From Erysipelotrichaceae bacterium MTC7 (GTDB taxonomy: Bacteria; Bacillota_I; Bacilli_A; Erysipelotrichales; Erysipelotrichaceae), in assembly GCA_001695645.1 (NCBI GenBank), contig LVZN01000002.1, forward strand, positions 30,001 through 62,000: DNA of 32,000 nt. The letters run 5' to 3'. Positions within the stretch are counted from its first letter, which is position 1. Each line of letters opens with the position of its first letter. The notes beneath the pieces are model-generated. The model had not been told where the DNA came from. It saw only the letters and a list, made by a program, of their open reading frames with translations, and did no database searches. A program made the translations under genes and the position numbers. Positions 9,014-25,596 of the stretch are shown here, one piece after another.

Positions 9014-11348
9014 TTTACCGATTGCCTACGGTCACAGCAGCCATGCGAAGAAGTGGTCGAATAAGACCACGACCTTCGATGACCTGTGCGAGAGGCTGAA
9101 GACCACCATCCGGACGCCGGAGTCGGTGGAGGAATATGCAAAGATGAAATCAAAAGAGCGCGAGACGGCAAAAGACCACGGCGGCTTTGTCTGCGGAGCC
9201 CTTACGGGCGGCAGGCGCCTTTTGCAGAACGTGGCGAGCCGCTCTATGGTCAACCTGGACGGCGACAGGGTCACGGCGGAGTTTGTGGACGGTTACGAAG
9301 CCGGAATGAAATACCGCTCCTGCCTGTACTCCACGCACGGTCATGTGCCGGAAGCTCCGAGGGTGAGGATACTGATCCCCCTCACCAGGGATGTGACTGC
9401 GGAGGAATATGTCGCCATCTCAAGATATGTGGCGGAGGAACTGGGCATCGACATGTTTGACGAATGCTCCTATCTTCCGAACCAGATGATGTACTGGCCG
9501 AGTACGCCGTCGAACGGAGAATACCTGTATCTCGTGACGGACGGAGACTGGCTGAATCCCGATGACATCCTCTCGGCGCATCCCGAATGGACGGACCCGG
9601 CGAGACTGCCCACATCCTCCAGGGAGAGCGAGGCAAAGGGCATCAGCGACAAGAAACAGGCGGACCCTTTGGAAAAGGACGGCATCGTCGGTATGTTCAA
9701 TAACGCCTACTTCCCTGTGAACCTTGCTATTGATGAATTCCTCGGTGACGTCTACGAGCTTTCGGCGGACGGTACCCGTTACCGCTTTAAGGAGTCGAGC
9801 AGCCAGCCGGGTGTCGAGGTCAAGGAGAGCGGCAAGTTCGTGTACAGCCACCACGCCAAGGACCCGGCATATCTGAAGCTGTGCAGCGCATTCGATATCG
9901 TCCGAATCCACCTGTTCGGTGATGAGGACGAGAAGAAGTCGTTCCGTGCGATGGCGGACTTTGCCAGCAAGGATGAAAAGGTCAAGATGCTGATCCTTGA
10001 GAAAAAGCAGCAGGAGGCGGAGACGGACTTCGACATCACGGACGAGGACGATTCCTGGAAGAAAAAGCTGGAGTATGAGCCTCGTTCCACCATGCTGAAA
10101 AATTCCCTGCACAACATTACCCTGATCATGGAGAACGATCCCAACCTCAAGGGCATCGTATTTAATCAGCTGGCTGACGGTATGGAGATCAAGGGCGAGG
10201 TGCCATGGAAGCATCCGGCAAGGTTCTGGCGCGATGCGGATGACGCCCAGCTTATCAGCTTTGTGGATTCCCATTATGGCTCTTTCTCGGAACGCAACTA
10301 CCGTATCGCTGTCACCAAGGTGACGGACGACCGTTCTTATCATCCTATCCGGGAAATGTTCGAGTCACTTCCACCCTGGGACAAGGTCAAGCGGGCGGAG
10401 ACCGTACTGATCGACTACCTCGGCGCGGAAGACAACCGCTATGTCAGGGCGGTCACGAGGAAGTCGCTGTGCGCGGCATACATGAGGGTGCATAATCCCG
10501 GCATCAAGTTCGACACCATGATCGTTCTGAACGGCGCACAGGGCATCGGCAAAAGCACCCTGATCGCCTGCCTCGGCGGGGAATGGTTCTCGGACAGCCT
10601 TGCGCTTTCGGACATGAACGACAAGACGGCAGCTGAGAAACTGCAGGGGTATTGGATTCTGGAGATCGGTGAACTTGCTGGCATGAAGAAAGCGGATATC
10701 GACAAGGTCAAAGCTTTCATATCCCGTCAGGATGACAAGTACCGCGCCAGTTTCGGACGGAGGGTGACTCCGCATCCGAGGCAGTGCGTGTTCTTTGGCA
10801 CGACCAACAGCGAGAACGGGTATCTCCGCGACATCACCGGCAACCGCAGATTCTGGAACGTCAAGGTCACGGGTCAGGGAAAATACAAGCCCTGGGACAT
10901 GACCAACGAGGTGGTTCAGCAAATATGGGCGGAGGTCGCCGAGATTGCCAAAGCGGGAGAAAGGCTGTATCTCGACGCTGACCTTGAGGCTTTTGCCAAG
11001 CAGGAGCAGCGCGAGGCGATGGAGCAGGATGACCGTGAGGGCATCGTGCGGAACTACCTGGATATGCTTCTTCCCGACAATTGGGACAGCATGGACTATT
11101 ACAGGCGCAGGGAGTATATCCGCGACATCGACGATCCGACAAGGACGGAGGGCACTGTGAAGCGTCAGACCGTGAGCAACATTGAGATCTGGTGCGAATG
11201 CTTCGGCAAAAGCAAAGAGGAGATGCGTCCCTCCGACTCTTATGCCATATCCGCCATCATGGTGCGGATTGAGGGCTGGGAGAAGTGCGGAGCGCGGCAG
11301 ATGCTCCCCATCTATGGGCGACAGCGTGTATATACGAGGACAACCTAA
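9006..11348 (+). CDS. Primase-helicase (N-terminal primase/polymerase-like region + VirE/D5-like P-loop NTPase)
   Basis: Walker A LNGAQGIGKST, Walker B-like YWILEIGEL, and VirE-family motifs ...RASFGRRVTPHPRQCVFFGTTN...RRFW. Size and position are typical of phage replicative primase-helicases. Confidence 0.85.
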   Translation: MRDLPIAYGHSSHAKKWSNKTTTFDDLCERLKTTIRTPESVEEYAKMKSKERETAKDHGGFVCGALTGGRRLLQNVASRSMVNLDGDRVTAEFVDGYEAGMKYRSCLYSTHGHVPEAPRVRILIPLTRDVTAEEYVAISRYVAEELGIDMFDECSYLPNQMMYWPSTPSNGEYLYLVTDGDWLNPDDILSAHPEWTDPARLPTSSRESEAKGISDKKQADPLEKDGIVGMFNNAYFPVNLAIDEFLGDVYELSADGTRYRFKESSSQPGVEVKESGKFVYSHHAKDPAYLKLCSAFDIVRIHLFGDEDEKKSFRAMADFASKDEKVKMLILEKKQQEAETDFDITDEDDSWKKKLEYEPRSTMLKNSLHNITLIMENDPNLKGIVFNQLADGMEIKGEVPWKHPARFWRDADDAQLISFVDSHYGSFSERNYRIAVTKVTDDRSYHPIREMFESLPPWDKVKRAETVLIDYLGAEDNRYVRAVTRKSLCAAYMRVHNPGIKFDTMIVLNGAQGIGKSTLIACLGGEWFSDSLALSDMNDKTAAEKLQGYWILEIGELAGMKKADIDKVKAFISRQDDKYRASFGRRVTPHPRQCVFFGTTNSENGYLRDITGNRRFWNVKVTGQGKYKPWDMTNEVVQQIWAEVAEIAKAGERLYLDADLEAFAKQEQREAMEQDDREGIVRNYLDMLLPDNWDSMDYYRRREYIRDIDDPTRTEGTVKRQTVSNIEIWCECFGKSKEEMRPSDSYAISAIMVRIEGWEKCGARQMLPIYGRQRVYTRTT

Positions 11349-11350
11349 TC

Positions 11351-11623
11351 CGTCCATTACCTGTCCGGGCGTTGTCCACGGTCAGAAAATGCAGTCACCA
11401 CAAGGGTTTTCTGCAAGTCCGTGGACAACTGGACAGAAAAATCTATAAAAGACAAAAACATTTAATTTCATATTACAAATCCCGTCCTGCACACAGGCGA
11501 ATGCGCACGTTTCGCGCGTAAAGGATTTTTTCGTCCACTTGTCCGCAAAAGCAGCGAAAACGCAGTCACAGCAAGGGTTTTTACTGTGGACAGGCTCTGC
11601 GGACAAGTGCTGGACGGGACAAC
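11351..11623. other. Putative replication origin: two related iteron units flanking an A+T-rich core
   Basis: At least 12 GTCC(A/G) / (T/C)GGAC boxes. Perfect inverted repeats TTGTCCACGG (11372-11381) / CCGTGGACAA (11419-11428) and CTTGTCCGC (11538-11546) / GCGGACAAG (11599-11607), each pair bracketing an 18/20-identical direct repeat GCAGTCAC..CAAGGGTTTT (11391-11410, 11562-11581). A+T-rich stretch at 11437-11480. Lies directly downstream of the primase-helicase gene. Confidence 0.4.
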
Positions 11624-11644
11624 TTCTGAAAGGAGAAATCAGAA

Positions 11645-12163
11645 ATGATCAAAAACGGAAGACCTTATACGAATGAGAACGGATTTGTCGATGAGGCGCT
11701 TATCACGGAACACAGTGATGAGGAGATAGCGGCTGTTGACGGATGGATCAGAAAGAATGTCCGTACAGGCAAGAAGATACTCCACGGACACACGAGTTAC
11801 GGGATGAAGCACATGCTGGAACACGACACCGGCATTTACCTTACGAACAATGAGTTCAAGGACGCTATGCTGCTTGCCGGATACCAGCCCGTGAATCCGA
11901 AGGACCTGAACTGGAAGTACCGCATTGAACTGACACGGGAGATCAATGACAATCCCAGCCCGTTCTTCCATTGGGTGAGGAAATACGAGATGGACGCCAC
12001 GCCCTGCGGAGACTTCGTCAGGGATATGCTTCACGACTTCGAGTTCCCGATCCTGGCGGAACACGACATCATAGCACGGTACCTTGGGCGCATCGGCGCT
12101 TGCAGCGGAGCGGTGGAGGCATTCGAGGAGTTATGGAGGGATTATGCGGGAGAGACAGATTGA
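11645..12163 (+). CDS. Hypothetical protein with C-terminal YozE/SAM-like domain
   Basis: AGGAG lies 9 nt upstream. C-terminal FFHWVRKYEMDATPCGDFVRDMLHDFEFP...IARYL pattern resembles the YozE_SAM_like family. N-terminal domain (TSYGMKHMLE motif) is unassigned. Confidence 0.55.
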   Translation: MIKNGRPYTNENGFVDEALITEHSDEEIAAVDGWIRKNVRTGKKILHGHTSYGMKHMLEHDTGIYLTNNEFKDAMLLAGYQPVNPKDLNWKYRIELTREINDNPSPFFHWVRKYEMDATPCGDFVRDMLHDFEFPILAEHDIIARYLGRIGACSGAVEAFEELWRDYAGETD

Positions 12164-12425
12164 ACAGAAACTTGTAAAAGCCGTAAAAGCTACAGGCGGC
12201 ATCGCACCGAAACTTACCTCTCCCGGATTTGACGGGATGCCCGACCGCATGGTGCTGATGCCGGGAGGGCGCATCGGGTTTGTCGAGGTGAAAGCACCGG
12301 GCGAGAAACCAAGACCGCTGCAGCTTTCAAGACACAGGCTCCTGCGGCGTCTGGGCTTCAAGGTGTATGTCTTGGACGATGCGGAGCAGATAGGAGGAAT
12401 CATCGATGATATACGAGCCACATGA
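12144..12425 (+). CDS. VRR-NUC domain nuclease
   Basis: ATG at 12144 follows GGAGGG. Motifs GMPDRMVL...GFVEVKAPGEKPRPLQ match the VRR-NUC D...(E/D)xK...Q signature. Sits beside an SNF2 helicase, as in many phages. Confidence 0.8.
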   Translation: MRERQIEQKLVKAVKATGGIAPKLTSPGFDGMPDRMVLMPGGRIGFVEVKAPGEKPRPLQLSRHRLLRRLGFKVYVLDDAEQIGGIIDDIRAT

Positions 12426-13770
12426 TTATCAGAAATATGCCACGGGATATATCGAAAGCCATCCCATTGCTGCAGTCCTGTTGGACATGGGACTTGGCAA
12501 GACGAGCATCACGCTGACGGCTCTTAACGACCTTCTGTTTGACAGCTTTGAGGTGCATAAAGTACTTGTCGTGGCACCTTTAAGAGTCGCCAGGTTTACA
12601 TGGTCTGCAGAGATCGAGAAATGGGAGCATCTGAGCGGACTTCAGTATTCCGTGGCAGTCGGAACAGAAAAAGAGCGGCTGGAAGCCCTGCAGAGACAGG
12701 CGGACATCTACATCATCAACCGTGAGAACGTGCAGTGGCTGATTGAGAAAAGCGGCATTCCCTTTGATTTCGACATGGTGGTGATCGATGAGCTTTCGTC
12801 ATTTAAGAACCACCAGGCAAAGCGGTTCAGGAGCCTTATGAAGGTCAGACCGAGGGTAAAACGAATCGTGGGGCTTACGGGAACGCCGAGCAGCAACGGC
12901 CTGATGGATCTGTGGGCGGAGTTCAGATTGCTTGACATGGGACAGCGGCTTGGACGGTTCATCGGGCAGTACAGAACGGCATATTTCAAGCCGGACAAGG
13001 TCAACGGTCCCATCGTTTACAGCTACAAGCCTCTGCCGGATGCCGAAAAGCAGATATACGGCAAAATATCCGACATCACGATTTCCATGAAATCAACCGA
13101 CCATCTGAAAATGCCGGAGCTGGTCAGTTCAAAGCATACGGTGTACCTGTCGGAGGATGAACGGAAACGGTATGAGGATATGAAAGCGGAACTGATCCTT
13201 CAGCTGCCGGAGGGTGAAGTGACAGCCGCCAATGCCGCTGCCCTTTCGGGGAAACTCTCCCAGATGGCGAACGGAGCGGTCTATTCCGATGATGAGTCGG
13301 TGGTGAAGATCCACGACCGCAAGCTGGACGCCCTGGAGGACATCATTGAGTCGGCGAACGGCAAACCGCTGCTTGTGGCGTACTGGTATAAGCACGACCT
13401 TGAGCGTATCACGGCGAGACTTGCGGAAATCAAGGGTCCCTTTGCCAAGCTGGACACGGACGCCAGTATCCGGAGGTGGAACGCTGGGGAGCTTCCCGTA
13501 GCACTCATACATCCGGCATCGGCTGGACACGGGCTGAACCTGCAGAGCGGCGGCAGCACCATTGTGTGGTTCGGGCTTACCTGGAGCCTTGAACTGTATC
13601 AGCAGACGAACGCAAGACTGTGGCGGCAGGGGCAGACAGCCGGGACCGTGGTGGTGCAGCACATCATCGCGGAGGACACGATTGACGGACGGATCATGAA
13701 AGCCTTGTCCGAAAAGGACAGCACACAATCTGCGTTGATCGAAGCCGTGAAAGCTGACCTTCAGCTATGA
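12406..13770 (+). CDS. SNF2/DEAD-like superfamily-2 helicase
   Basis: Motif I LDMGLGKTS, motif II VVIDELSSFKN, motif III GLTGTP, C-terminal helicase motifs HPASAGHGLNLQ and RLWRQGQ. Confidence 0.85.
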   Translation: MIYEPHDYQKYATGYIESHPIAAVLLDMGLGKTSITLTALNDLLFDSFEVHKVLVVAPLRVARFTWSAEIEKWEHLSGLQYSVAVGTEKERLEALQRQADIYIINRENVQWLIEKSGIPFDFDMVVIDELSSFKNHQAKRFRSLMKVRPRVKRIVGLTGTPSSNGLMDLWAEFRLLDMGQRLGRFIGQYRTAYFKPDKVNGPIVYSYKPLPDAEKQIYGKISDITISMKSTDHLKMPELVSSKHTVYLSEDERKRYEDMKAELILQLPEGEVTAANAAALSGKLSQMANGAVYSDDESVVKIHDRKLDALEDIIESANGKPLLVAYWYKHDLERITARLAEIKGPFAKLDTDASIRRWNAGELPVALIHPASAGHGLNLQSGGSTIVWFGLTWSLELYQQTNARLWRQGQTAGTVVVQHIIAEDTIDGRIMKALSEKDSTQSALIEAVKADLQL

Positions 13771-13848
13771 CGGCATCTATGACAATCTATGGAGACAATC
13801 ATGGCCAATCCGAGGGAAACAACAATTTCTTATTCGGAGGTAGACACC

Positions 13849-14310
13849 ATGAATGTAGTTTGGAAGTATCTGGACAAAAGAGCCGGGGCTGTCGCGGCGC
13901 TTAAGGATTTCGGCAGCATGAAGTTCATCATCGAGAACACGGATGATGAGATCAAAGCGGCGTATGACAAGATGTCGAGCGTCAGTGGCGTCCGTTATGA
14001 CGGGATGCCGCATGTGAGGAATCTCCACGCCGCCGAGGACAGGATCATCAATGCCATCGATGAGATCGATGTGCTGAAGGAGCGTTACAGGCAGGCGGTG
14101 GAATACATGGACTGGTTCGTTCCCGCATGGGAGCAGCTGTCGGAGGATGACCGCTATGTGCTGGACACCTTCTACAGTGAGGACAACGAGTACGGCAGCA
14201 GCGTGGTTGATGACATCGCGGAGTATTTCCATATCGAGCGGGCATCCGCTTACCGCAGGAAGAACCGTGCCATCGACAAGCTGACCGTCCTGCTGTTCGG
14301 CAAGCCTTAA
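13849..14310 (+). CDS. Putative late-gene transcriptional activator (RinA/ArpU-like, sigma-70 region-4-type HTH)
   Basis: ATG at 13849 is 8 nt after GGAGG (alternative ATG at 13789). C-terminal LSEDDRYVLDTFY...VVDDIAEYFHIERASAYRRKNRAIDKL is r4-like. Position immediately upstream of HNH/terS is typical of late activators. Confidence 0.5.
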   Translation: MNVVWKYLDKRAGAVAALKDFGSMKFIIENTDDEIKAAYDKMSSVSGVRYDGMPHVRNLHAAEDRIINAIDEIDVLKERYRQAVEYMDWFVPAWEQLSEDDRYVLDTFYSEDNEYGSSVVDDIAEYFHIERASAYRRKNRAIDKLTVLLFGKP

Positions 14311-14359: not shown

Positions 14360-14439
14360 GATATCGTAAAATAGTGGGCGGAGCCTCATGGGAGAAATCC
14401 TGTGGGGCTTTTCTTATGCCCGGAAAGCGAGGTGGAAGG

Positions 14440-14787
14440 ATGCCAAGAAAACCAAAGCGTCCCTGCCGCTACCCCGGATGTCCGAACCTTACGGACGGTG
14501 TTTATTGCGAGGAACACGCAAAACAGATGGAACAGCACTACGAGAAGTTCCAGCGTGGCTACTCACCCGGCAAACGTTACGGACGTGCCTGGACACGCAT
14601 CCGTCACCGGTACGCAAGCAAGCATCCTCTCTGTGAGATGTGCATGAAAGAAGGTCGGTATGTTGCGGTCGAGGAGGTCCACCACATCGTGCCGCTGTCG
14701 GAAGGCGGAACGCACGATGAGTCAAACCTTATGAGCCTGTGCCGTTCCTGTCACGAGAAAATACACAAAGAACGTGGTGATCGATAA
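14440..14787 (+). CDS. Phage HNH endonuclease (packaging-associated type)
   Basis: MPRKPKRPCRYPGCPNL...; HNH core CEMC...VHHIVPLSEGGTHDESNLMSLCRSCHEKIH. Sits beside a P27-type terS, as in cos phages that need an HNH partner. Confidence 0.85.
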   Translation: MPRKPKRPCRYPGCPNLTDGVYCEEHAKQMEQHYEKFQRGYSPGKRYGRAWTRIRHRYASKHPLCEMCMKEGRYVAVEEVHHIVPLSEGGTHDESNLMSLCRSCHEKIHKERGDR

Positions 14788-14911: not shown

Positions 14912-14931
14912 GCGCGGAAGGAGGTGTGAAA

Positions 14932-15480
14932 ATGCCGACAAAATCCAACAACACAGGCGGTCGGGGCGGTGCGAGACCCGGTGCGGGAAGGAAGAAATCC
15001 GCTGTCAAGGAGAAAGCCGAGAACGGCAATCCGGGCGGACGCAGACTGGAAGTTCTTGATATTCCCGAAGTCGAGGGTGTCGATATGCCAAAACCGCATG
15101 ATTTTCTGTCAGCAGAGCAAAGGGACGGAAGTACCCTGCAGGCGGAGGAAATCTATAAGGAAACATGGGAATGGCTGCAGAAGGTCGGGTGCGCCGCAAA
15201 GGTGTCTCCCCAGCTTCTGGAGAGGTACGCCATGTGCAGTGCCAGGTGGATACAGTGCGAGGAGATGACGAACCGCATGGGATTCCTCTCCAAGCACCCG
15301 ACGACGCAGAAGCCGATACCGTCGCCGTTCATCAACATCGGCATCAACTACATGAACCAGGCGGTGCGGCTCTGGAACGAGATATTCCAAATCGTGAAGG
15401 AGAACTGCAGCACCGACTACGGGGATGTTTCCCCGCAGGATGACCTGATGGAGCGACTGCTCAGAGCAAGGAAAGGATAA
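14932..15480 (+). CDS. terS: Terminase small subunit, P27 family
   Basis: ATG at 14932 follows GGAAGGAGG. Gly/Arg-rich N-terminus GGRGGARPGAGRKK, then ...TWEWLQKVG...LLERYAMCSARWIQCEE..., as in P27-type TerS. Confidence 0.75.
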   Translation: MPTKSNNTGGRGGARPGAGRKKSAVKEKAENGNPGGRRLEVLDIPEVEGVDMPKPHDFLSAEQRDGSTLQAEEIYKETWEWLQKVGCAAKVSPQLLERYAMCSARWIQCEEMTNRMGFLSKHPTTQKPIPSPFINIGINYMNQAVRLWNEIFQIVKENCSTDYGDVSPQDDLMERLLRARKG

Positions 15481-15484
15481 TGAT

Positions 15485-16285
15485 ATGTTTGAAAAAGTAA
15501 ATCCCGCACATCCCGATAAACTGGCTGACCGCATCGCCGGGGCCATTGTGGATGCCGCATACAGAAAAGAAAGTGATCCGAAGATCGCCGTGGAAGTCCT
15601 GCTCGGTCACGGAATGTGTCACATTATCGCGGAGACTTCTGTACATATTCCGAAGGGCGAGATCACGGATATTGTCCGCCGTATCGCCGGGAATGTGAAA
15701 ATCAGCGTCCAGGAAGTTCCGCAGGACGGGCACCTGTCTAAGAATCAGTCTGCCGGGTTTCGCTGCGGTGACAACGGCATCTTTAAGGGCGTGCCTGTGA
15801 CGGATGAGCAGAAAAAGCTGACAAAGATCGCCGCAGATATCTACGGTCAGTACCACGCTGACGGCAAGTATATTCTGGACGGCGATAATCTGACCTTCTG
15901 CCAGAGCAATGCAGATACACAGCAGCTGAAGAAATCATATAAGAAAGCCGTGGTCAATCCGCTGGGTGACTGGACGGGCGGCACGGATGTGGACGCAGGA
16001 GCCACGAACAGGAAGCTCGGCTCTGATATGGGCGATTCCGTCACAGGCGGCGGTCTGCACGGTAAAGACCTGTCAAAAGCTGACGTGTCCGTGAACATCT
16101 GGGCATGGCTCAAGGCGCAGGAAACCGGCAAGCCCGTGGAGCTTTCCTGCTCCATCGGAGATGAGAAGGTCGGCGGCGTGCCGTATACGGAGATCGTAGA
16201 GACCGCGAGGAAATACATCGATGGTCTCGGCGGTTTTGAGAAATTTGCGGAATGGGGGTTGGTGCGATATGAAGACAACGACTGA
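15485..16285 (+). CDS. metK: Compact (266 aa) S-adenosylmethionine synthetase (MetK) homolog
   Basis: Aligned by eye to MetK signatures: AHPDKLADRIAGAIVDA (GHPDKxxDxISDAxLDA), CGDNGIFKG (GAGDQGxMFGYA), NPLGDWTGG...ATNRKLGSDMGD (NPTGRF..GGP..D.GLTGRKIIVDTYGG), GGGLHGKDLSKADVS (GGGAFSGKDPxKVDRS). About 120 aa shorter than canonical MetK. Confidence 0.7.
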   Translation: MFEKVNPAHPDKLADRIAGAIVDAAYRKESDPKIAVEVLLGHGMCHIIAETSVHIPKGEITDIVRRIAGNVKISVQEVPQDGHLSKNQSAGFRCGDNGIFKGVPVTDEQKKLTKIAADIYGQYHADGKYILDGDNLTFCQSNADTQQLKKSYKKAVVNPLGDWTGGTDVDAGATNRKLGSDMGDSVTGGGLHGKDLSKADVSVNIWAWLKAQETGKPVELSCSIGDEKVGGVPYTEIVETARKYIDGLGGFEKFAEWGLVRYEDND

Positions 16286-17528
16286 AATGCAGCTCGTTCC
16301 GATTGCAAAACTGGTACCTTATGTGAATAACGCGCGTACCCACTCCCCGGAGCAGATAAACAAGCTGCGATCCTCCCTCCGGGAGTTCGGCTTCATCAAT
16401 CCTGTCATTATCGACCGTGACTTTGGCGTTATCGCCGGCCACGGTCGTATTCTTGCGGCGAAAGAGGAAGGCATCACGGAAGTGCCGTGTGTCTTTGCCG
16501 ACCATCTGACAGAGGCGCAGAAGAAAGCGTATATCATCGCCGACAACCGCATGGCGATGGACGCCGGATGGGACGAGGAGCTTCTGCGTGTCGAGATCGA
16601 GGCTTTGCAGGGCATGGACTTCGATCCCATGCTCACAGGCTTTGATGAAAAGGAACTGGCTGACCTGTTTGGCACAGAGTCTGACAGCGAGGCGAAGGAT
16701 GATGACTTTGACCTGACCGCCGCATTGGAGAAAGCCGCCTTTGTGGAGCGGGGTGATATCTGGACAGTGGGCAGACACAGGCTGATGTGCGGAGACGCTA
16801 CGGACGCTGGAGATGTCGCATTGCTGATGGGCGGCAGGAAAGCCAACCTTATCGTGACAGATCCTCCGTATGGCGTATCCTTCAAGAGTTCCAGCGGTCT
16901 TACCATACAGAACGATTCCATGAAGAACGAGGAGTTTTACAACTTCCTGTTCGCTGCGTTCAAGTGTATGGCGGATGTGCTGGAGAAAGGCGGCGCGGCT
17001 TATGTGTTCCACGCGGACACCGAAGGCTTGAACTTCCGAAAAGCGTTCATTGACGCCGGGTTCCACCTGGCGGGCGTGTGTATCTGGGTGAAGAATTCCC
17101 TGGTACTTGGTCGCTCGGATTATCAGTGGCAGCACGAGCCGGTGCTTTACGGATTCCTGCAGAACGGCAAGCATCCGTGGTACTCCGACCGCAAGCAGAC
17201 CACCATCTGGAATTATGATAAGCCAAAACGTAACGCCAACCATCCGACATCAAAGCCGCTCGACCTGCTCGGATACCCTATCGGGAATTCCTCGCAGGAG
17301 AACTCCATCGTGATCGATACCTTCGGCGGCAGCGGCTCCACCATGATGGCATGCGAACAGATGAACCGCATGTGTTTCACTATGGAGCTGGATGAGAAGT
17401 ACGCATCGGTCATCCTCCGCAGGGCTGTGGAGAACGGCATTGATCCCGCTGACATTTATGTTGAAAGAAACGGAGAAAAAATGATGTACTCCGACCTCGT
17501 GAAAGAGGTGGAGGTTCCTAATGAGTAA
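16269..17528 (+). CDS. ParB-like nuclease domain fused to a beta-class N6A/N4C DNA methyltransferase
   Basis: N-terminal ParB/Srx-like segment (VPYVNNARTHS...IAGHGRILAA). Methylase motif IV IVTDPPYG precedes motif I DTFGGSGST (beta-class order). Overlaps metK-like by 17 nt and the next gene by 8 nt. Confidence 0.85.
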   Translation: MKTTTEMQLVPIAKLVPYVNNARTHSPEQINKLRSSLREFGFINPVIIDRDFGVIAGHGRILAAKEEGITEVPCVFADHLTEAQKKAYIIADNRMAMDAGWDEELLRVEIEALQGMDFDPMLTGFDEKELADLFGTESDSEAKDDDFDLTAALEKAAFVERGDIWTVGRHRLMCGDATDAGDVALLMGGRKANLIVTDPPYGVSFKSSSGLTIQNDSMKNEEFYNFLFAAFKCMADVLEKGGAAYVFHADTEGLNFRKAFIDAGFHLAGVCIWVKNSLVLGRSDYQWQHEPVLYGFLQNGKHPWYSDRKQTTIWNYDKPKRNANHPTSKPLDLLGYPIGNSSQENSIVIDTFGGSGSTMMACEQMNRMCFTMELDEKYASVILRRAVENGIDPADIYVERNGEKMMYSDLVKEVEVPNE

Positions 17529-19659
17529 ACTGACGCTTGGCAGCCTGTTTGACGGTTCCGGCGGTTTTCCTTTGGGCGGCTTGATTTCCGGCATCACTCC
17601 CGTGTGGAGTTCGGAGATCGAGCCGTTTCCCGTTATGGTGACTTCGAAGCGGCTGCCGTTTGTGAAACATTATGGTGACGTATCCACGTTAAAGGGCGGC
17701 GAGCTTGAGCCGGTGGATATCATCACCTTCGGCTCACCCTGCCAGGATATGTCCGTGGCGGGTAAAAGAGAGGGGCTGGACGGCTCCCGTTCAAGCCTTT
17801 TCTATGAAGCTGTCCGAATCGTAAAGGAAATGAGGTGTGCAACCAATGGAAAATATCCGAGATACATCGTCTGGGAGAACGTCCCAGGCGCGTTCAGTTC
17901 GAACAAAGGCGCGGACTTCCAGTCCGTCCTCGAAGAGATCTGCAGCGTCAAAGGATACGAGATTGATCCTGCTCGACCTGCGAAATGGCCAAACGCCGGA
18001 GAGATCGTGGCAGACGATTTCAGTCTCGCATGGCGGGTATTTGATGCTCAATACTGGGGAGTTCCCCAGCGAAGAAAACGTATCTACCTTGTCGCAGATT
18101 TTGCAGGCGGGAGTGCCGGAAAAATATTATTTGAGTCAGAAGGCATGTCTGGGTATACTCCGCAGGGCTTCCGCTCGTGGGAAGGAGCTGCCGGAACTGC
18201 TGAAGAAGGCGCTCATGCGTCAGGCATCGGCATAGACGGATACAACGGAGCTGTCTCTGATGAGGCGGCTACCCTTGGCGAGAACTGCGGGATGTCCACG
18301 GGCAGGAACGGCGTCATGGTCTTAAACGACCAGGGCGGCGACCGCATGGATGTGACGGAGGGAGTGACCTGTACGCTCCGCGCAGAGGCGCACCATCCTC
18401 CCTGCGTGATGGGAGCGGCGGGTTTCTGCACTGAGCATTCAGCGGATTCCAGGGGCATCGGATATGAAGAGGAGACTTCTCCCACGCTCCGTGCCGGGAC
18501 AGTTCCGGCTGCGGTCTATGAGAACCACAGCCAGGATACCAGATACACGGGGCCGCTTGATGTGGCTCCTACGGTGATGTCCACCTACGGAACGGGCGGC
18601 AATAACCAGCCGTTCGTGGTGGAGGACACTCCGAAAACGCTGAAGATCCGTTCCGGCTGTGAGGGTGGCGGTAAGGGCGCACTGATACAGGATAATAAAT
18701 CGGCAACGCTCGGCTGCAACAACGATCAGACCGTCTTTGTGCCGTTTGTAAAAGGCACCCGTCCACATTCTGCCGAAGAGGGACAGCAATGGAAGGAATC
18801 CGATGTGGCAAATACGCTGAATACCCATGACGTCGGCGAGGCAAGGTGCAACGAGCTGGCGGTTAAGGTCTACGGCATCTGCTCCAAGGATTCAAACGCC
18901 ATGAAGTCCGATAATCCGAAAAGCGGATTCTATGAGGCGGATACCACACGGACGCTTGACGCAAACGGCGGCAACCCCTCCTGCAACCAGGGCGGCATGG
19001 CTGTCGTGGCTCTTGAGGGCAACGGTGCAAGACCGTCCCATAAGGGCAGCGGCTATTCCGAGGAAGATGTCAGCTTCACGCTGAATGCTACAGAACAGCA
19101 TGCCGTAGCATACGGCATCGACCGTGCTACCTATAACATGGGGCAGAACGCCAAGTTCGGGATCGCGGTCGAGGAGGAAGTCGAGCCTACGATGGTGGCA
19201 AAGGGACCGGGCGCGGTCGGACAGCCTGTGTACCATTCCAGCAAGAGTTCATTTCACACGAATTTCTCAGATGAAGCTGTATCTGATACGCTTGTTGCCA
19301 CTGACTTCAAAGACCCGCCGACGGTATCGGAAGACCCATATTATATCGTGAGGAGACTTACTCCTACTGAGTGCGCAAGGCTGCAGGGCTTTCCCGAATG
19401 GTGGTGCGACGGGCTTGGAACGGACGAGCCGACCGAGGAGGAGATTGCTTTCTGGACGGAGGTGTTTGAAACGCATCGGAGGGTTATGGGGACATCCTCC
19501 AAGCCGAAGACCAGGAACCAGATCATCAAGTGGATCAAGGAGCCGCATTCCGACTCCGCAGAATATAAGATGTGGGGCAACGGCGTGGCTTTGCCGAATG
19601 TCTGCTTTGTGCTTTCGGGGATCGTGTACTATGCACAGTTCCCGGAATTTTTGTTGTGA
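17521..19659 (+). CDS. DNA (cytosine-5) methyltransferase, 712 aa, with a target-recognition region of about 400 aa made of repeated TL-type units
   Basis: Motif I LFDGSGGF, motif IV GSPCQDMS, motif VI ENVPG, motif VIII QRRKRIYLV, motif IX RRLTPTECARLQGFP, motif X GNGVALPNV. Between VIII and IX are 11 occurrences of (D/E)(D/E)xxxT(L/V/M). Confidence 0.9.
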   Translation: MSKLTLGSLFDGSGGFPLGGLISGITPVWSSEIEPFPVMVTSKRLPFVKHYGDVSTLKGGELEPVDIITFGSPCQDMSVAGKREGLDGSRSSLFYEAVRIVKEMRCATNGKYPRYIVWENVPGAFSSNKGADFQSVLEEICSVKGYEIDPARPAKWPNAGEIVADDFSLAWRVFDAQYWGVPQRRKRIYLVADFAGGSAGKILFESEGMSGYTPQGFRSWEGAAGTAEEGAHASGIGIDGYNGAVSDEAATLGENCGMSTGRNGVMVLNDQGGDRMDVTEGVTCTLRAEAHHPPCVMGAAGFCTEHSADSRGIGYEEETSPTLRAGTVPAAVYENHSQDTRYTGPLDVAPTVMSTYGTGGNNQPFVVEDTPKTLKIRSGCEGGGKGALIQDNKSATLGCNNDQTVFVPFVKGTRPHSAEEGQQWKESDVANTLNTHDVGEARCNELAVKVYGICSKDSNAMKSDNPKSGFYEADTTRTLDANGGNPSCNQGGMAVVALEGNGARPSHKGSGYSEEDVSFTLNATEQHAVAYGIDRATYNMGQNAKFGIAVEEEVEPTMVAKGPGAVGQPVYHSSKSSFHTNFSDEAVSDTLVATDFKDPPTVSEDPYYIVRRLTPTECARLQGFPEWWCDGLGTDEPTEEEIAFWTEVFETHRRVMGTSSKPKTRNQIIKWIKEPHSDSAEYKMWGNGVALPNVCFVLSGIVYYAQFPEFLL

Positions 19660-23985: not shown

Positions 23986-25596
23986 GTGAGCATTACGAGA
24001 AAACTGAAGAAATACAAACCGACACAGCTTATGGCGAAGACCTCCCGCTATGACAAGGAGGCTGCGGATTATGCCGTCATGTTCATCGAGTCGCTCTGCC
24101 ACACCAAAGGCACATGGGCGGGAAAGCCCTTTGAACTGATCGACTGGCAGGAGCAGATCATCCGTGACCTTTTTGGTATCTTGAAGCCCAATGGTTACCG
24201 CCAGTTCAACACGGCATACATCGAGATACCGAAGAAACAGGGCAAGAGCGAGCTTGCGGCGGCGGTGGCACTCCTTCTCCTCTGCGGAGACGGCGAAGAA
24301 CGCGCCGAGGTGTACGGCTGTGCCGCCGACAGGAACCAGGCAAAGATCGTCTTTGATGTGGCTGTGGATATGGTGCGGTTCTGCCCGGCACTTGCCAAGC
24401 GCGTGAAGATACTGGAGTCGCAGAAAAAGATAACCTATCTGCCAACCAACAGTTCCTACCAGGTGCTGTCGGCTGATGTGGCAAACAAGCACGGTTTCAA
24501 TACCCACGGCGTTATTTTTGATGAGCTGCACACGCAGCCGAACAGAAAGCTGTTTGATGTCATGCTACAGGGCTCCGGCGATGCAAGGATGCAGCCGCTT
24601 TACTTTCTGATCACCACAGCCGGGAATGATACGAATTCCATCTGCTATGAGGTGCATCAGAAAGCCTTGGACATCCAAGCAGGACGGAAGGTCGATCCGA
24701 CTTTCTATTCCGTTATCTACGGTGCGGCGGAGGATGAGGACTGGACGGACCCGGAGGTCTGGAAGAAAGCAAATCCCTCTCTCGGCATCACGGTCGGTAT
24801 CGACAAGGTGAAAGCGGCGTGTGATTCCGCACAGCAGAATCCTGGCGAGGAGAACGCATTCCGGCAGTTAAGACTCAATCAATGGGTGAAACAGTCGGTC
24901 AGATGGATGCCGATGGACAAGTGGGATGCCTGTGCGTTCCCTGTTTCCGAGGATGATCTGGAGGGTCGTGTCTGTTACGGCGGTCTTGACCTCTCGTCCA
25001 CAACGGATATTACGGCGTTCGTTCTGGTGTTCCCGCCGCAGGATGAGGAGGATAAATACAGCATCCTTCCGTTCTTCTGGATACCGGAGGAGACCGTTGA
25101 CCTTCGTGTAAAGCGAGACCATGTTCCCTATGATCTGTGGGAGCGGCAGGGACTTCTGATGACCACGGAGGGCAATGTTGTTCACTACGGATATATTGAA
25201 AAATTTATCGAGCGGCTGGGAGAGCGGTTCAACATCCGCGAGATCGCATTTGACCGCTGGGGAGCGGTGCAGATGGTGCAGAACCTTGAGGGCATGGGAT
25301 TTACGGTCGTTCCGTTCGGACAGGGATTTAAGGATATGTCCCCGCCGACCAAGGAACTGATGAAGCTGACTTTGGAGGAGAAGATCGCACACGGCGGGCA
25401 TCCCGTCCTGCGGTGGATGATGGACAACATCTTCATCCGTACCGATCCAGCCGGAAACATCAAGGCAGACAAGGAAAAATCGACAGAAAAGATCGATGGC
25501 GCGATTGCGACCATCATGGCACTCGACCGGGCGATCCGGTGCGGCAATGAATCTCACGAGAGCGTGTATGACTCCCGTGGGATTTTGTTTATATGA
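23986..25596 (+). CDS. terL: Terminase large subunit (Terminase_1 type)
   Basis: ...AADYAVMFIESLCHTKGTWAGKPFELIDWQEQIIRDLFG..., Walker A-like IEIPKKQGKS, Walker B FDELH, and a C-terminal RNaseH-like nuclease region with ...DKIDGAIA. Start is uncertain: the GTG at 23986 sits inside the only SD-like GGGAGGTG, and the next in-frame ATG is at 24031. Confidence 0.9.
   Translation: MSITRKLKKYKPTQLMAKTSRYDKEAADYAVMFIESLCHTKGTWAGKPFELIDWQEQIIRDLFGILKPNGYRQFNTAYIEIPKKQGKSELAAAVALLLLCGDGEERAEVYGCAADRNQAKIVFDVAVDMVRFCPALAKRVKILESQKKITYLPTNSSYQVLSADVANKHGFNTHGVIFDELHTQPNRKLFDVMLQGSGDARMQPLYFLITTAGNDTNSICYEVHQKALDIQAGRKVDPTFYSVIYGAAEDEDWTDPEVWKKANPSLGITVGIDKVKAACDSAQQNPGEENAFRQLRLNQWVKQSVRWMPMDKWDACAFPVSEDDLEGRVCYGGLDLSSTTDITAFVLVFPPQDEEDKYSILPFFWIPEETVDLRVKRDHVPYDLWERQGLLMTTEGNVVHYGYIEKFIERLGERFNIREIAFDRWGAVQMVQNLEGMGFTVVPFGQGFKDMSPPTKELMKLTLEEKIAHGGHPVLRWMMDNIFIRTDPAGNIKADKEKSTEKIDGAIATIMALDRAIRCGNESHESVYDSRGILFI

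Follow-up and report, generated by a model that had tools for sequence, protein, structure and literature searches.

The open reading frame at positions 15485 to 16285 of the window, the 32,000-nucleotide stretch of DNA analysed here, encodes a 266-residue protein that, judged from sequence profiles and a predicted structure, is a genuine homologue of the S-adenosylmethionine (SAM) synthetase MetK, hereafter mini-MetK. We give a probability of about 0.7 to the reading that mini-MetK is an active compact SAM synthetase feeding the phage DNA methylases during lytic growth. The protein would then be a size-reduced methionine adenosyltransferase (MAT), converting ATP and L-methionine into SAM, PPi and Pi. 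Its gene would be co-transcribed with terS and two SAM-consuming DNA methyltransferases as part of a late packaging operon, probably with translational coupling to terS and the methyltransferases, and the SAM supply raised during lytic growth would support heavy methylation of new phage DNA before packaging. We infer enzyme activity, dimer formation, expression timing and the delivery of SAM to the phage methylases: catalytic competence is read from homology, fold, retained catalytic residues and purifying selection, and the role in phage methylation from the operon geometry, the conserved linkage to the ParB-MTase and a genomic slot shared with full-length MetK.

The gene lies among the packaging genes of a prophage, with the following features, the protein motifs being read from the sequence:

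14374 to 14787, + strand: HNH endonuclease (Pfam HNH, E 1.1e-15); the same position is filled in most related loci
14929 to 15480, + strand: terS, terminase small subunit (Pfam Terminase_4; phrog_83, E 2.5e-35)
15470 to 15477, + strand: Shine-Dalgarno-like GGAAAGGA, within the 3' end of terS, 7 nt 5' of the mini-metK ATG
15485 to 16285, + strand: mini-MetK, compact S-adenosylmethionine synthetase homologue, ATG start, 266 aa
15509 to 15535, + strand: HPDKLADRI, residues 9-17 (HPDK at 15509 to 15520)
15767 to 15778, + strand: GDNG, residues 95-98
15956 to 15967, + strand: NPLG, residues 158-161
16004 to 16015, + strand: TNRK, residues 174-177, then D181
16046 to 16084, + strand: GGGLHGKDLSKAD, residues 188-200
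16229 to 16261, + strand: GGFEKFAEWGL, clade-specific, in the C-terminal part of mini-MetK
16269 to 17528, + strand: ParB-N and N6/N4 DNA methyltransferase fusion, ParB-MTase (Pfam ParB_N and N6_N4_Mtase; phrog_498, E 6e-178)
17521 to 19659, + strand: large C5-cytosine DNA methyltransferase, C5-MTase, 712 aa (Pfam DNA_methylase, E 2.6e-40)
23986 to 25596, + strand: terL, terminase large subunit, 82% identical to a sibling-prophage protein that itself matches phrog_9 large terminase

All MetK signature blocks are present in the 266-residue frame and follow the canonical order, as the first-pass annotation had reported, and its description of the gene junctions was also borne out. The terS stop codon (TAA, 15478-15480) is followed by a 4-nt spacer, TGAT, and by the mini-metK ATG at 15485; the ATG of the ParB-MTase at 16269 precedes the end of the mini-metK stop codon (16283-16285), giving a 17-nt overlap; and the C5-MTase start at 17521 lies 8 nt inside the ParB-MTase gene, which ends at 17528. 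The longest ParB-MTase frame opens at 16221, but the ATG at 16269 was preferred because the phrog_498 alignment and the homologues agree on it, and it is most likely the true start. Between terS and the C5-MTase, simple consensus scans for promoters and terminators returned chance-level matches only, indicating that no obvious signal breaks the operon, and an Rfam search of the whole window gave no match, a SAM riboswitch included. Amidoligase/GGCT genes lie downstream of the C5-MTase, so that the enzyme classes follow one another as mini-MetK, C5-MTase and amidoligases, within an accessory island that begins at mini-metK and ends at terL. The HNH endonuclease is the usual partner of a terminase of this type.

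Several profile and sequence searches placed mini-MetK in the MetK family. The N-terminal Pfam model PF00438 (S-AdoMet_synt_N) scored 45.7 bits against a cutoff of 33.1, and the central and C-terminal MetK models PF02772 and PF02773 gave no match at E <= 0.01. The precomputed Pfam assignments of the other mini-family members show the same restriction to PF00438, whereas full-length prophage MetKs carry all three domains. With the NCBIfam metK equivalog model TIGR01034, mini-MetK reached 50.3 bits, mainly over the N-terminal 70 residues, well below the cutoff of 309.4; by these sequence models alone, the protein is thus MetK-related and not a metK equivalog. Other comparisons extended the relationship over almost the whole chain. 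Residues 1-261 aligned with positions 4-338 of the 346 in phrog_1569 (E 1.3e-68), a group that holds phage MetK-like proteins and is labelled 'unknown function' in PHROG, and hhalign matched a 141-member mini-family profile to a full-length MetK profile with a probability of 98.6% (E 1.3e-15, 230 columns), pairing each signature block of mini-MetK with its full-length counterpart. Only MetK/MAT entries were returned when phmmer was run against all PDB sequences (best E 2e-10), the best matches covering two stretches of mini-MetK, the HPDK region and the region from NPxG to GKD.

The predicted structure agrees with this assignment. An AlphaFold2 monomer model built on 141 relatives had a mean pLDDT of 89.2 and a pTM of 0.90, with low confidence at residues 161-170, in the P-loop-bearing region. 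When this model was compared with the PDB by Foldseek, the best 50 matches were all MetK/MAT structures (E ~1e-15, TMq 0.62-0.75), and nothing significant was found in the BFVD viral structure library. The first-pass annotation had named the protein a miniaturised MetK about one third shorter than canonical enzymes. Both points hold: PF00438, hhalign and the 50 best Foldseek matches all lead to MetK/MAT, and with its 266 aa the protein falls 27-32% short of the host MetK (366 aa, likely start) and of the MetK of a sibling prophage (393 aa). Its expectation that whole subdomain segments must be missing was not upheld by the model comparison, in which the fold is kept and trimmed throughout.

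This comparison was made against a model of the 393-aa sibling-prophage MetK (pLDDT 78.7), with the secondary-structure elements matched one by one. Every core element of the full-length model has a counterpart in mini-MetK, and no domain is deleted. The beta-alpha-beta-beta-alpha-beta repeats 1 and 2 are complete in the mini-MetK model, and the core of repeat 3 is kept in compressed form, its last strand being resolved as a strand in neither the mini nor the full-length model. The reductions are spread along the chain (positions in the full-length model are given before those in mini-MetK): the beta6-beta7 hairpin shrinks from 14 + 14 to 6 + 6 residues (163-176/179-192 to 127-132/135-140), helix alpha4 from 16 to 7 (198-213 to 145-151), the gate loop that follows the gate helix from about 21 to 10 (102-122 to 88-97) and the C-terminal tail beyond alpha6 from about 58 to 18 (336-393 to 249-266), and the loop preceding alpha3 is shortened as well. 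Hardly any change is seen in the N-terminal repeat or in the segment that bears the P-loop (228-272 versus 158-198). Judged from these models, the shortening of mini-MetK is distributed trimming around an intact core. A complete deletion of the gate loop had been guessed at from a three-sequence MAFFT alignment in which the GDxG block was misplaced; this was rejected, since both a 31-sequence alignment and hhalign keep the gate-loop Gln and the motif QDxxLxxNQ.

The presumed active site is retained. Using the 31-sequence alignment, which includes family members of intermediate length, together with hhalign, we mapped 15 presumed catalytic or substrate residues in mini-MetK: H9, D11, K12, E37, E50, Q80, D96, K128, W163, D170, R176, K177, K194, K198 and D200. 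In motif terms, they comprise the HPDK residues, a pair of Glu, the Gln of the gate loop, the Asp of GDxG, a Lys in the centre of the chain, one aromatic residue, Asp, Arg and Lys from the GG..D.G.T.RK block and K..K.D from the GKD block. Each has an identical counterpart in the two full-length MetKs, save for W versus F at one position, and they correspond to what we take to be H14, D16, K17, E42, E55, Q98, D118, K165, F230, D238, R244, K245, K265, K269 and D271 of E. coli MetK, presumably the ligands of the metals, triphosphate, methionine and adenine. All 15 are invariant in 73/73 sequences from viral loci and in 141/141 relatives at 61-96% identity, and these 141 also share the gate-loop motif QDxxLxxNQ without exception. 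The protein therefore resembles canonical MetK (E. coli 7loo, 7ll3 and 1fug; U. urealyticum MAT 6rkc) in its three-repeat fold, in its block order, in these 15 residues, with W for F at the presumed adenine-stacking position, and in its gate loop. It differs in being about 100-130 residues shorter, in its identity of only about 27%, and in the GDNG, ATNRKLGSDM and GGFEKFAEWGL motifs and three invariant cysteines of the mini clade. These cysteines, C94, C139 and C222, as well as H42, lack a counterpart in canonical MetK and are invariant in the 141 mini-family sequences.

Selection on the gene bears on whether it could be a decaying, functionless remnant of a full-length phage metK, a reading that its loss of a third of the canonical length and the split frame found in 2/80 related loci might suggest. 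Pairwise Nei-Gojobori dN/dS values of mini-metK have a median of 0.12-0.135, and the length of the protein is steady at 260-267 aa over thousands of clusters. Such a dN/dS (around 0.13) and length conservation, with invariant catalytic residues and a confidently predicted fold, make decay extremely improbable and in effect refute it. In the two loci concerned (L008, 1908-2693; L050, 4980-5783), the mini-metK frame is divided into two ORFs, which could reflect a frameshift, a stop codon or a sequencing error.

Across the wider family, residue conservation is less strict. When 50%-identity clusters were compared, 42 of their representatives had no gap at any catalytic column, and the complete set of 15 was found in 29 of these. 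Three full-length members, P0184, P0209 and P0214, have lost 6-8 of the 15; these sequences, like P0213 and P0142, are at 40-44% identity, and among the changes seen HPDK reads NINK and the RK pair is absent. Motifs of the fold, GGFEKLAEWGL for instance, persist in the degenerate members, which may be pseudoenzymes or copies in decay. The loss of residues in a few members implies that catalysis would be the rule in the family and not universal. Points that speak against activity of mini-MetK are the failure to reach the TIGR01034 cutoff, the missing matches to the central and C-terminal Pfam models, the low-confidence residues 161-170 and these degenerate relatives.

The host genome offers two full-length comparisons. 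Its own housekeeping metK (366 aa if the likely start is used) scores 510 bits on TIGR01034, so the phage copy is an extra one. A contrast in SAM-riboswitch control between the host and phage genes was considered and dropped, as Rfam found no SAM riboswitch upstream of the host metK, just as none was found in the window. A T-box leader (121.5 bits; L001, 1198-1398, - strand) was found directly 3' of the host metK, where it presumably regulates the gene that follows. The second comparison comes from another prophage of the same genome, seen in the stretch 19000-38900 of contig C34 (L007), which has the same architecture as that of the window: primase-helicase, SNF2 helicase, HNH, TerS, MetK, ParB-MTase, amidoligases, TerL and portal. 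In this sibling prophage, a 393-aa MetK (L007, 10033-11214; TIGR01034, 468 bits; phrog_1569, E 2e-145) is followed by the ParB-MTase gene (11162-12430). Between the two prophages, the flanking proteins show identities of 57% (TerS), 50% (ParB-MTase), 82% (TerL) and 67% (SNF2), and mini-MetK and the sibling MetK share two patches of about 38% identity, with about 27% overall. Since terS and the ParB-MTase gene enclose a full-length MetK in one prophage and mini-MetK in the other, canonical and mini forms are interchangeable occupants of this slot; of the computational evidence, we consider this equivalence the strongest sign that both perform the same task.

Fragments of full-length-type metK were also seen at the ends of short contigs of the same assembly (C36:1-423, C66:5-394 and C68:5-394). 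Their position suggests that the assembly is interrupted within repeated prophage metK copies, so that further prophages of this type may be present in the host genome besides the two identified. Among Enterococcus, Clostridioides, Thermoanaerobacter, Eubacterium, Margalitia and other, very different genera of Bacillota, the lineage of prophage-borne full-length MetKs (P0391-P0510) is 86-91% identical, which suggests a recent wide spread on mobile elements; many of its records are named 'methionine adenosyltransferase'.

The shared slot also bears on two readings in which mini-MetK would not make SAM. According to the first, mini-MetK would be a non-catalytic mimic that binds and modulates a SAM-dependent defence protein or, through mixed dimers, host MetK. 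Because the two subunits of a MetK dimer form the active site between them, a compact homologue could in principle pair with the host enzyme; the diverged family members keep fold-level motifs despite the loss of 6-8 catalytic residues, and the SAM lyase of phage T3 targets MetK, PDB entry 8bb1 being among the Foldseek matches. However, a binder would not need the strict invariance of 15 residues and the gate loop seen in the mini clade, and the same slot of the sibling prophage holds a clearly canonical full-length MetK, and we therefore consider such mimicry quite unlikely.

The second assumes altered chemistry, mini-MetK producing a SAM analogue or using a different nucleotide, and thereby supplying the cofactor for a DNA hypermodification carried out with the C5-MTase and the amidoligase/GGCT proteins. 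Synechococcus phage S-B43 provides a precedent in its pathway of cofactor synthase, C5-transferase and amide ligase (CmoA, CmoX and CmoY; PMC12783734), and the window shows the same order of enzyme classes. The likeness lies in a cofactor-making enzyme encoded beside a DNA-modifying transferase, together with an amide ligase; the difference is that CmoA is unrelated in fold and converts SAM into carboxy-SAM, whereas mini-MetK is expected to make SAM itself. The methionine-binding equivalents E50, Q80, D96 and D170 and the hydrophobic gate-loop residue L84 are conserved as in canonical MetK, the full-length MetK of the sibling prophage passes the equivalog cutoff, and nothing in the window indicates a non-methyl modification. 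Altered chemistry is, in our view, very unlikely.

The linkage to the DNA methylases, one basis of the proposed role in phage methylation, is widely conserved. In 80 IMG/VR loci (69-88% identity), the order HNH - TerS - mini-MetK - ParB-MTase - (C5-MTase) - amidoligase - TerL is nearly constant; because a single related phage lineage supplies most of these contexts, they do not count as independent observations. A TerS homologue adjoins mini-metK upstream in 71/80 loci, the ParB-MTase is found in all 80 and directly adjoins mini-metK in 70, and a C5-MTase homologue is present in 49. Gene order is rearranged in four of the 80, with a methylase still near. The gap between the upstream stop codon and mini-metK is 0-6 nt in 58 of the 72 intact cases. 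The module of MetK and ParB-MTase recurs in annotated phages of Gardnerella, Streptococcus and Terrisporobacter, the record of the Terrisporobacter phage giving culture supernatant as its source.

An additional supply of SAM would also be in keeping with the methyl demand of such a phage. A bacterial SAM pool is of the order of 1e5 molecules. By a rough estimate, a multi-specific C5-MTase and an N6/N4 MTase acting on some 50-100 genomes of about 50 kb could create a similar demand for methyl groups, making extra synthesis plausible. The idea of the first-pass annotation that the gene serves a local SAM supply for methylation gains from the methylase linkage and the operon packing, and the role itself stays a plausible one. 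Its further suggestion of a counter-defence against SAM depletion, by host defences or by SAM lyases of competitors, found no support in the analysis, and a gene that it had singled out as a curiosity turned out to belong to a very large and already annotated family. This family comprises more than 8000 clusters at 90% identity, and representatives of clustering at 50% numbered 1406 at E <= 1e-3 and 221 at E <= 1e-30, with some database sources already calling its members S-adenosylmethionine synthetase. The gene was present in 9 of the 397 species genomes sampled from the class of the host (its own genome included), in 8 families, a patchy distribution that fits a mobile gene.

Previous work places mini-MetK among known phage genes. 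The 2014 annotation of S. pyogenes Phi1207.3 proposed a 353-aa MetK (orf29) as methyl-donor supplier for a neighbouring C5-methylase, and this phage also encodes a ParB-MTase nearby. Such full-length prophage MetKs, that of the C34 sibling included, resemble mini-MetK in where their genes lie with respect to terS and to the ParB-MTase and/or C5-MTase, and in the proposed methyl-donor role; they differ in carrying all three Pfam domains and not PF00438 alone. A 2021 study of S. agalactiae prophage 12/111phiA described a MetK truncated by 135 aa relative to that of E. coli, argued that its catalytic region is intact, linked the prophage to Javan-like prophages and reported lysogen phenotypes without enzymology (PMC8223999). 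Streptococcus Javan prophage proteins are 65% identical to the mini-MetK of the window, and by our reading the truncated 12/111phiA MetK would belong to the same mini family. It comes from another host clade, and its metK neighbours are a toxin-antitoxin pair and an endonuclease (PMC8223999).

The 12/111phiA phenotypes raise the alternative that an active SAM synthetase mainly benefits the lysogen, altering AI-2 signalling, polyamines, aggregation and biofilm (lysogenic conversion). Deletion of the truncated metK reduced aggregation and biofilm formation, and a plasmid copy partly restored flocculation; this complementation was incomplete, however, and was confounded by secondary mutations (PMC8223999). 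In the window, the gene lies inside the late operon between terS and terL and shows no obvious promoter of its own; one would therefore not expect the lysogen to express it, and its tight linkage to DNA methylases points to a phage-directed function. A main benefit to the lysogen is therefore unlikely. A narrower version of the methylation role, in which mini-MetK would serve as the dedicated cofactor source for a DNA-modifying pathway whose genes lie between terS and terL (ParB-MTase, multi-module C5-MTase, amidoligase/GGCT), perhaps physically coupled to the next-translated methylase and working as a stand-alone dimer free of host-MetK regulation, is improbable as well.

In gut phages, metK is a recognised auxiliary gene, representing 8.6% of the annotated auxiliary metabolic genes in an FMT phageome study (22.8% for dcm), and both the methyl-donor idea (2014) and the truncation (2021) are already published. 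Our literature search found no enzymology or structure of the mini form. The gene family and its likely role are thus already in the literature and databases, and biochemistry is the new ground. If SAM synthesis by mini-MetK is indeed active, the 266-aa protein would be, to our knowledge, the smallest natural methionine adenosyltransferase, would mark a near-minimal core of the MetK fold and would be of use for enzymology and for the engineering of compact SAM or SAM-analogue synthases; the remaining value of the family is enzymological, and lies in this possible smallest natural MAT and in the catalytically degenerate subclade. It would also mean that, in many gut prophages, a methyl-donor supply is encoded together with broad-specificity methylases, which bears on restriction evasion.

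Upstream of the operon, a 173-aa ORF (13789-14310) located between the SNF2 helicase and HNH genes gave no solid Pfam match. At the equivalent position, Gardnerella phage vB_Gva_AB1 has a gene labelled 'RNA polymerase subunit sigma-70' and the Terrisporobacter phage one labelled 'transcriptional regulator'; by analogy, this ORF may encode a late-gene regulator of the mini-metK operon.
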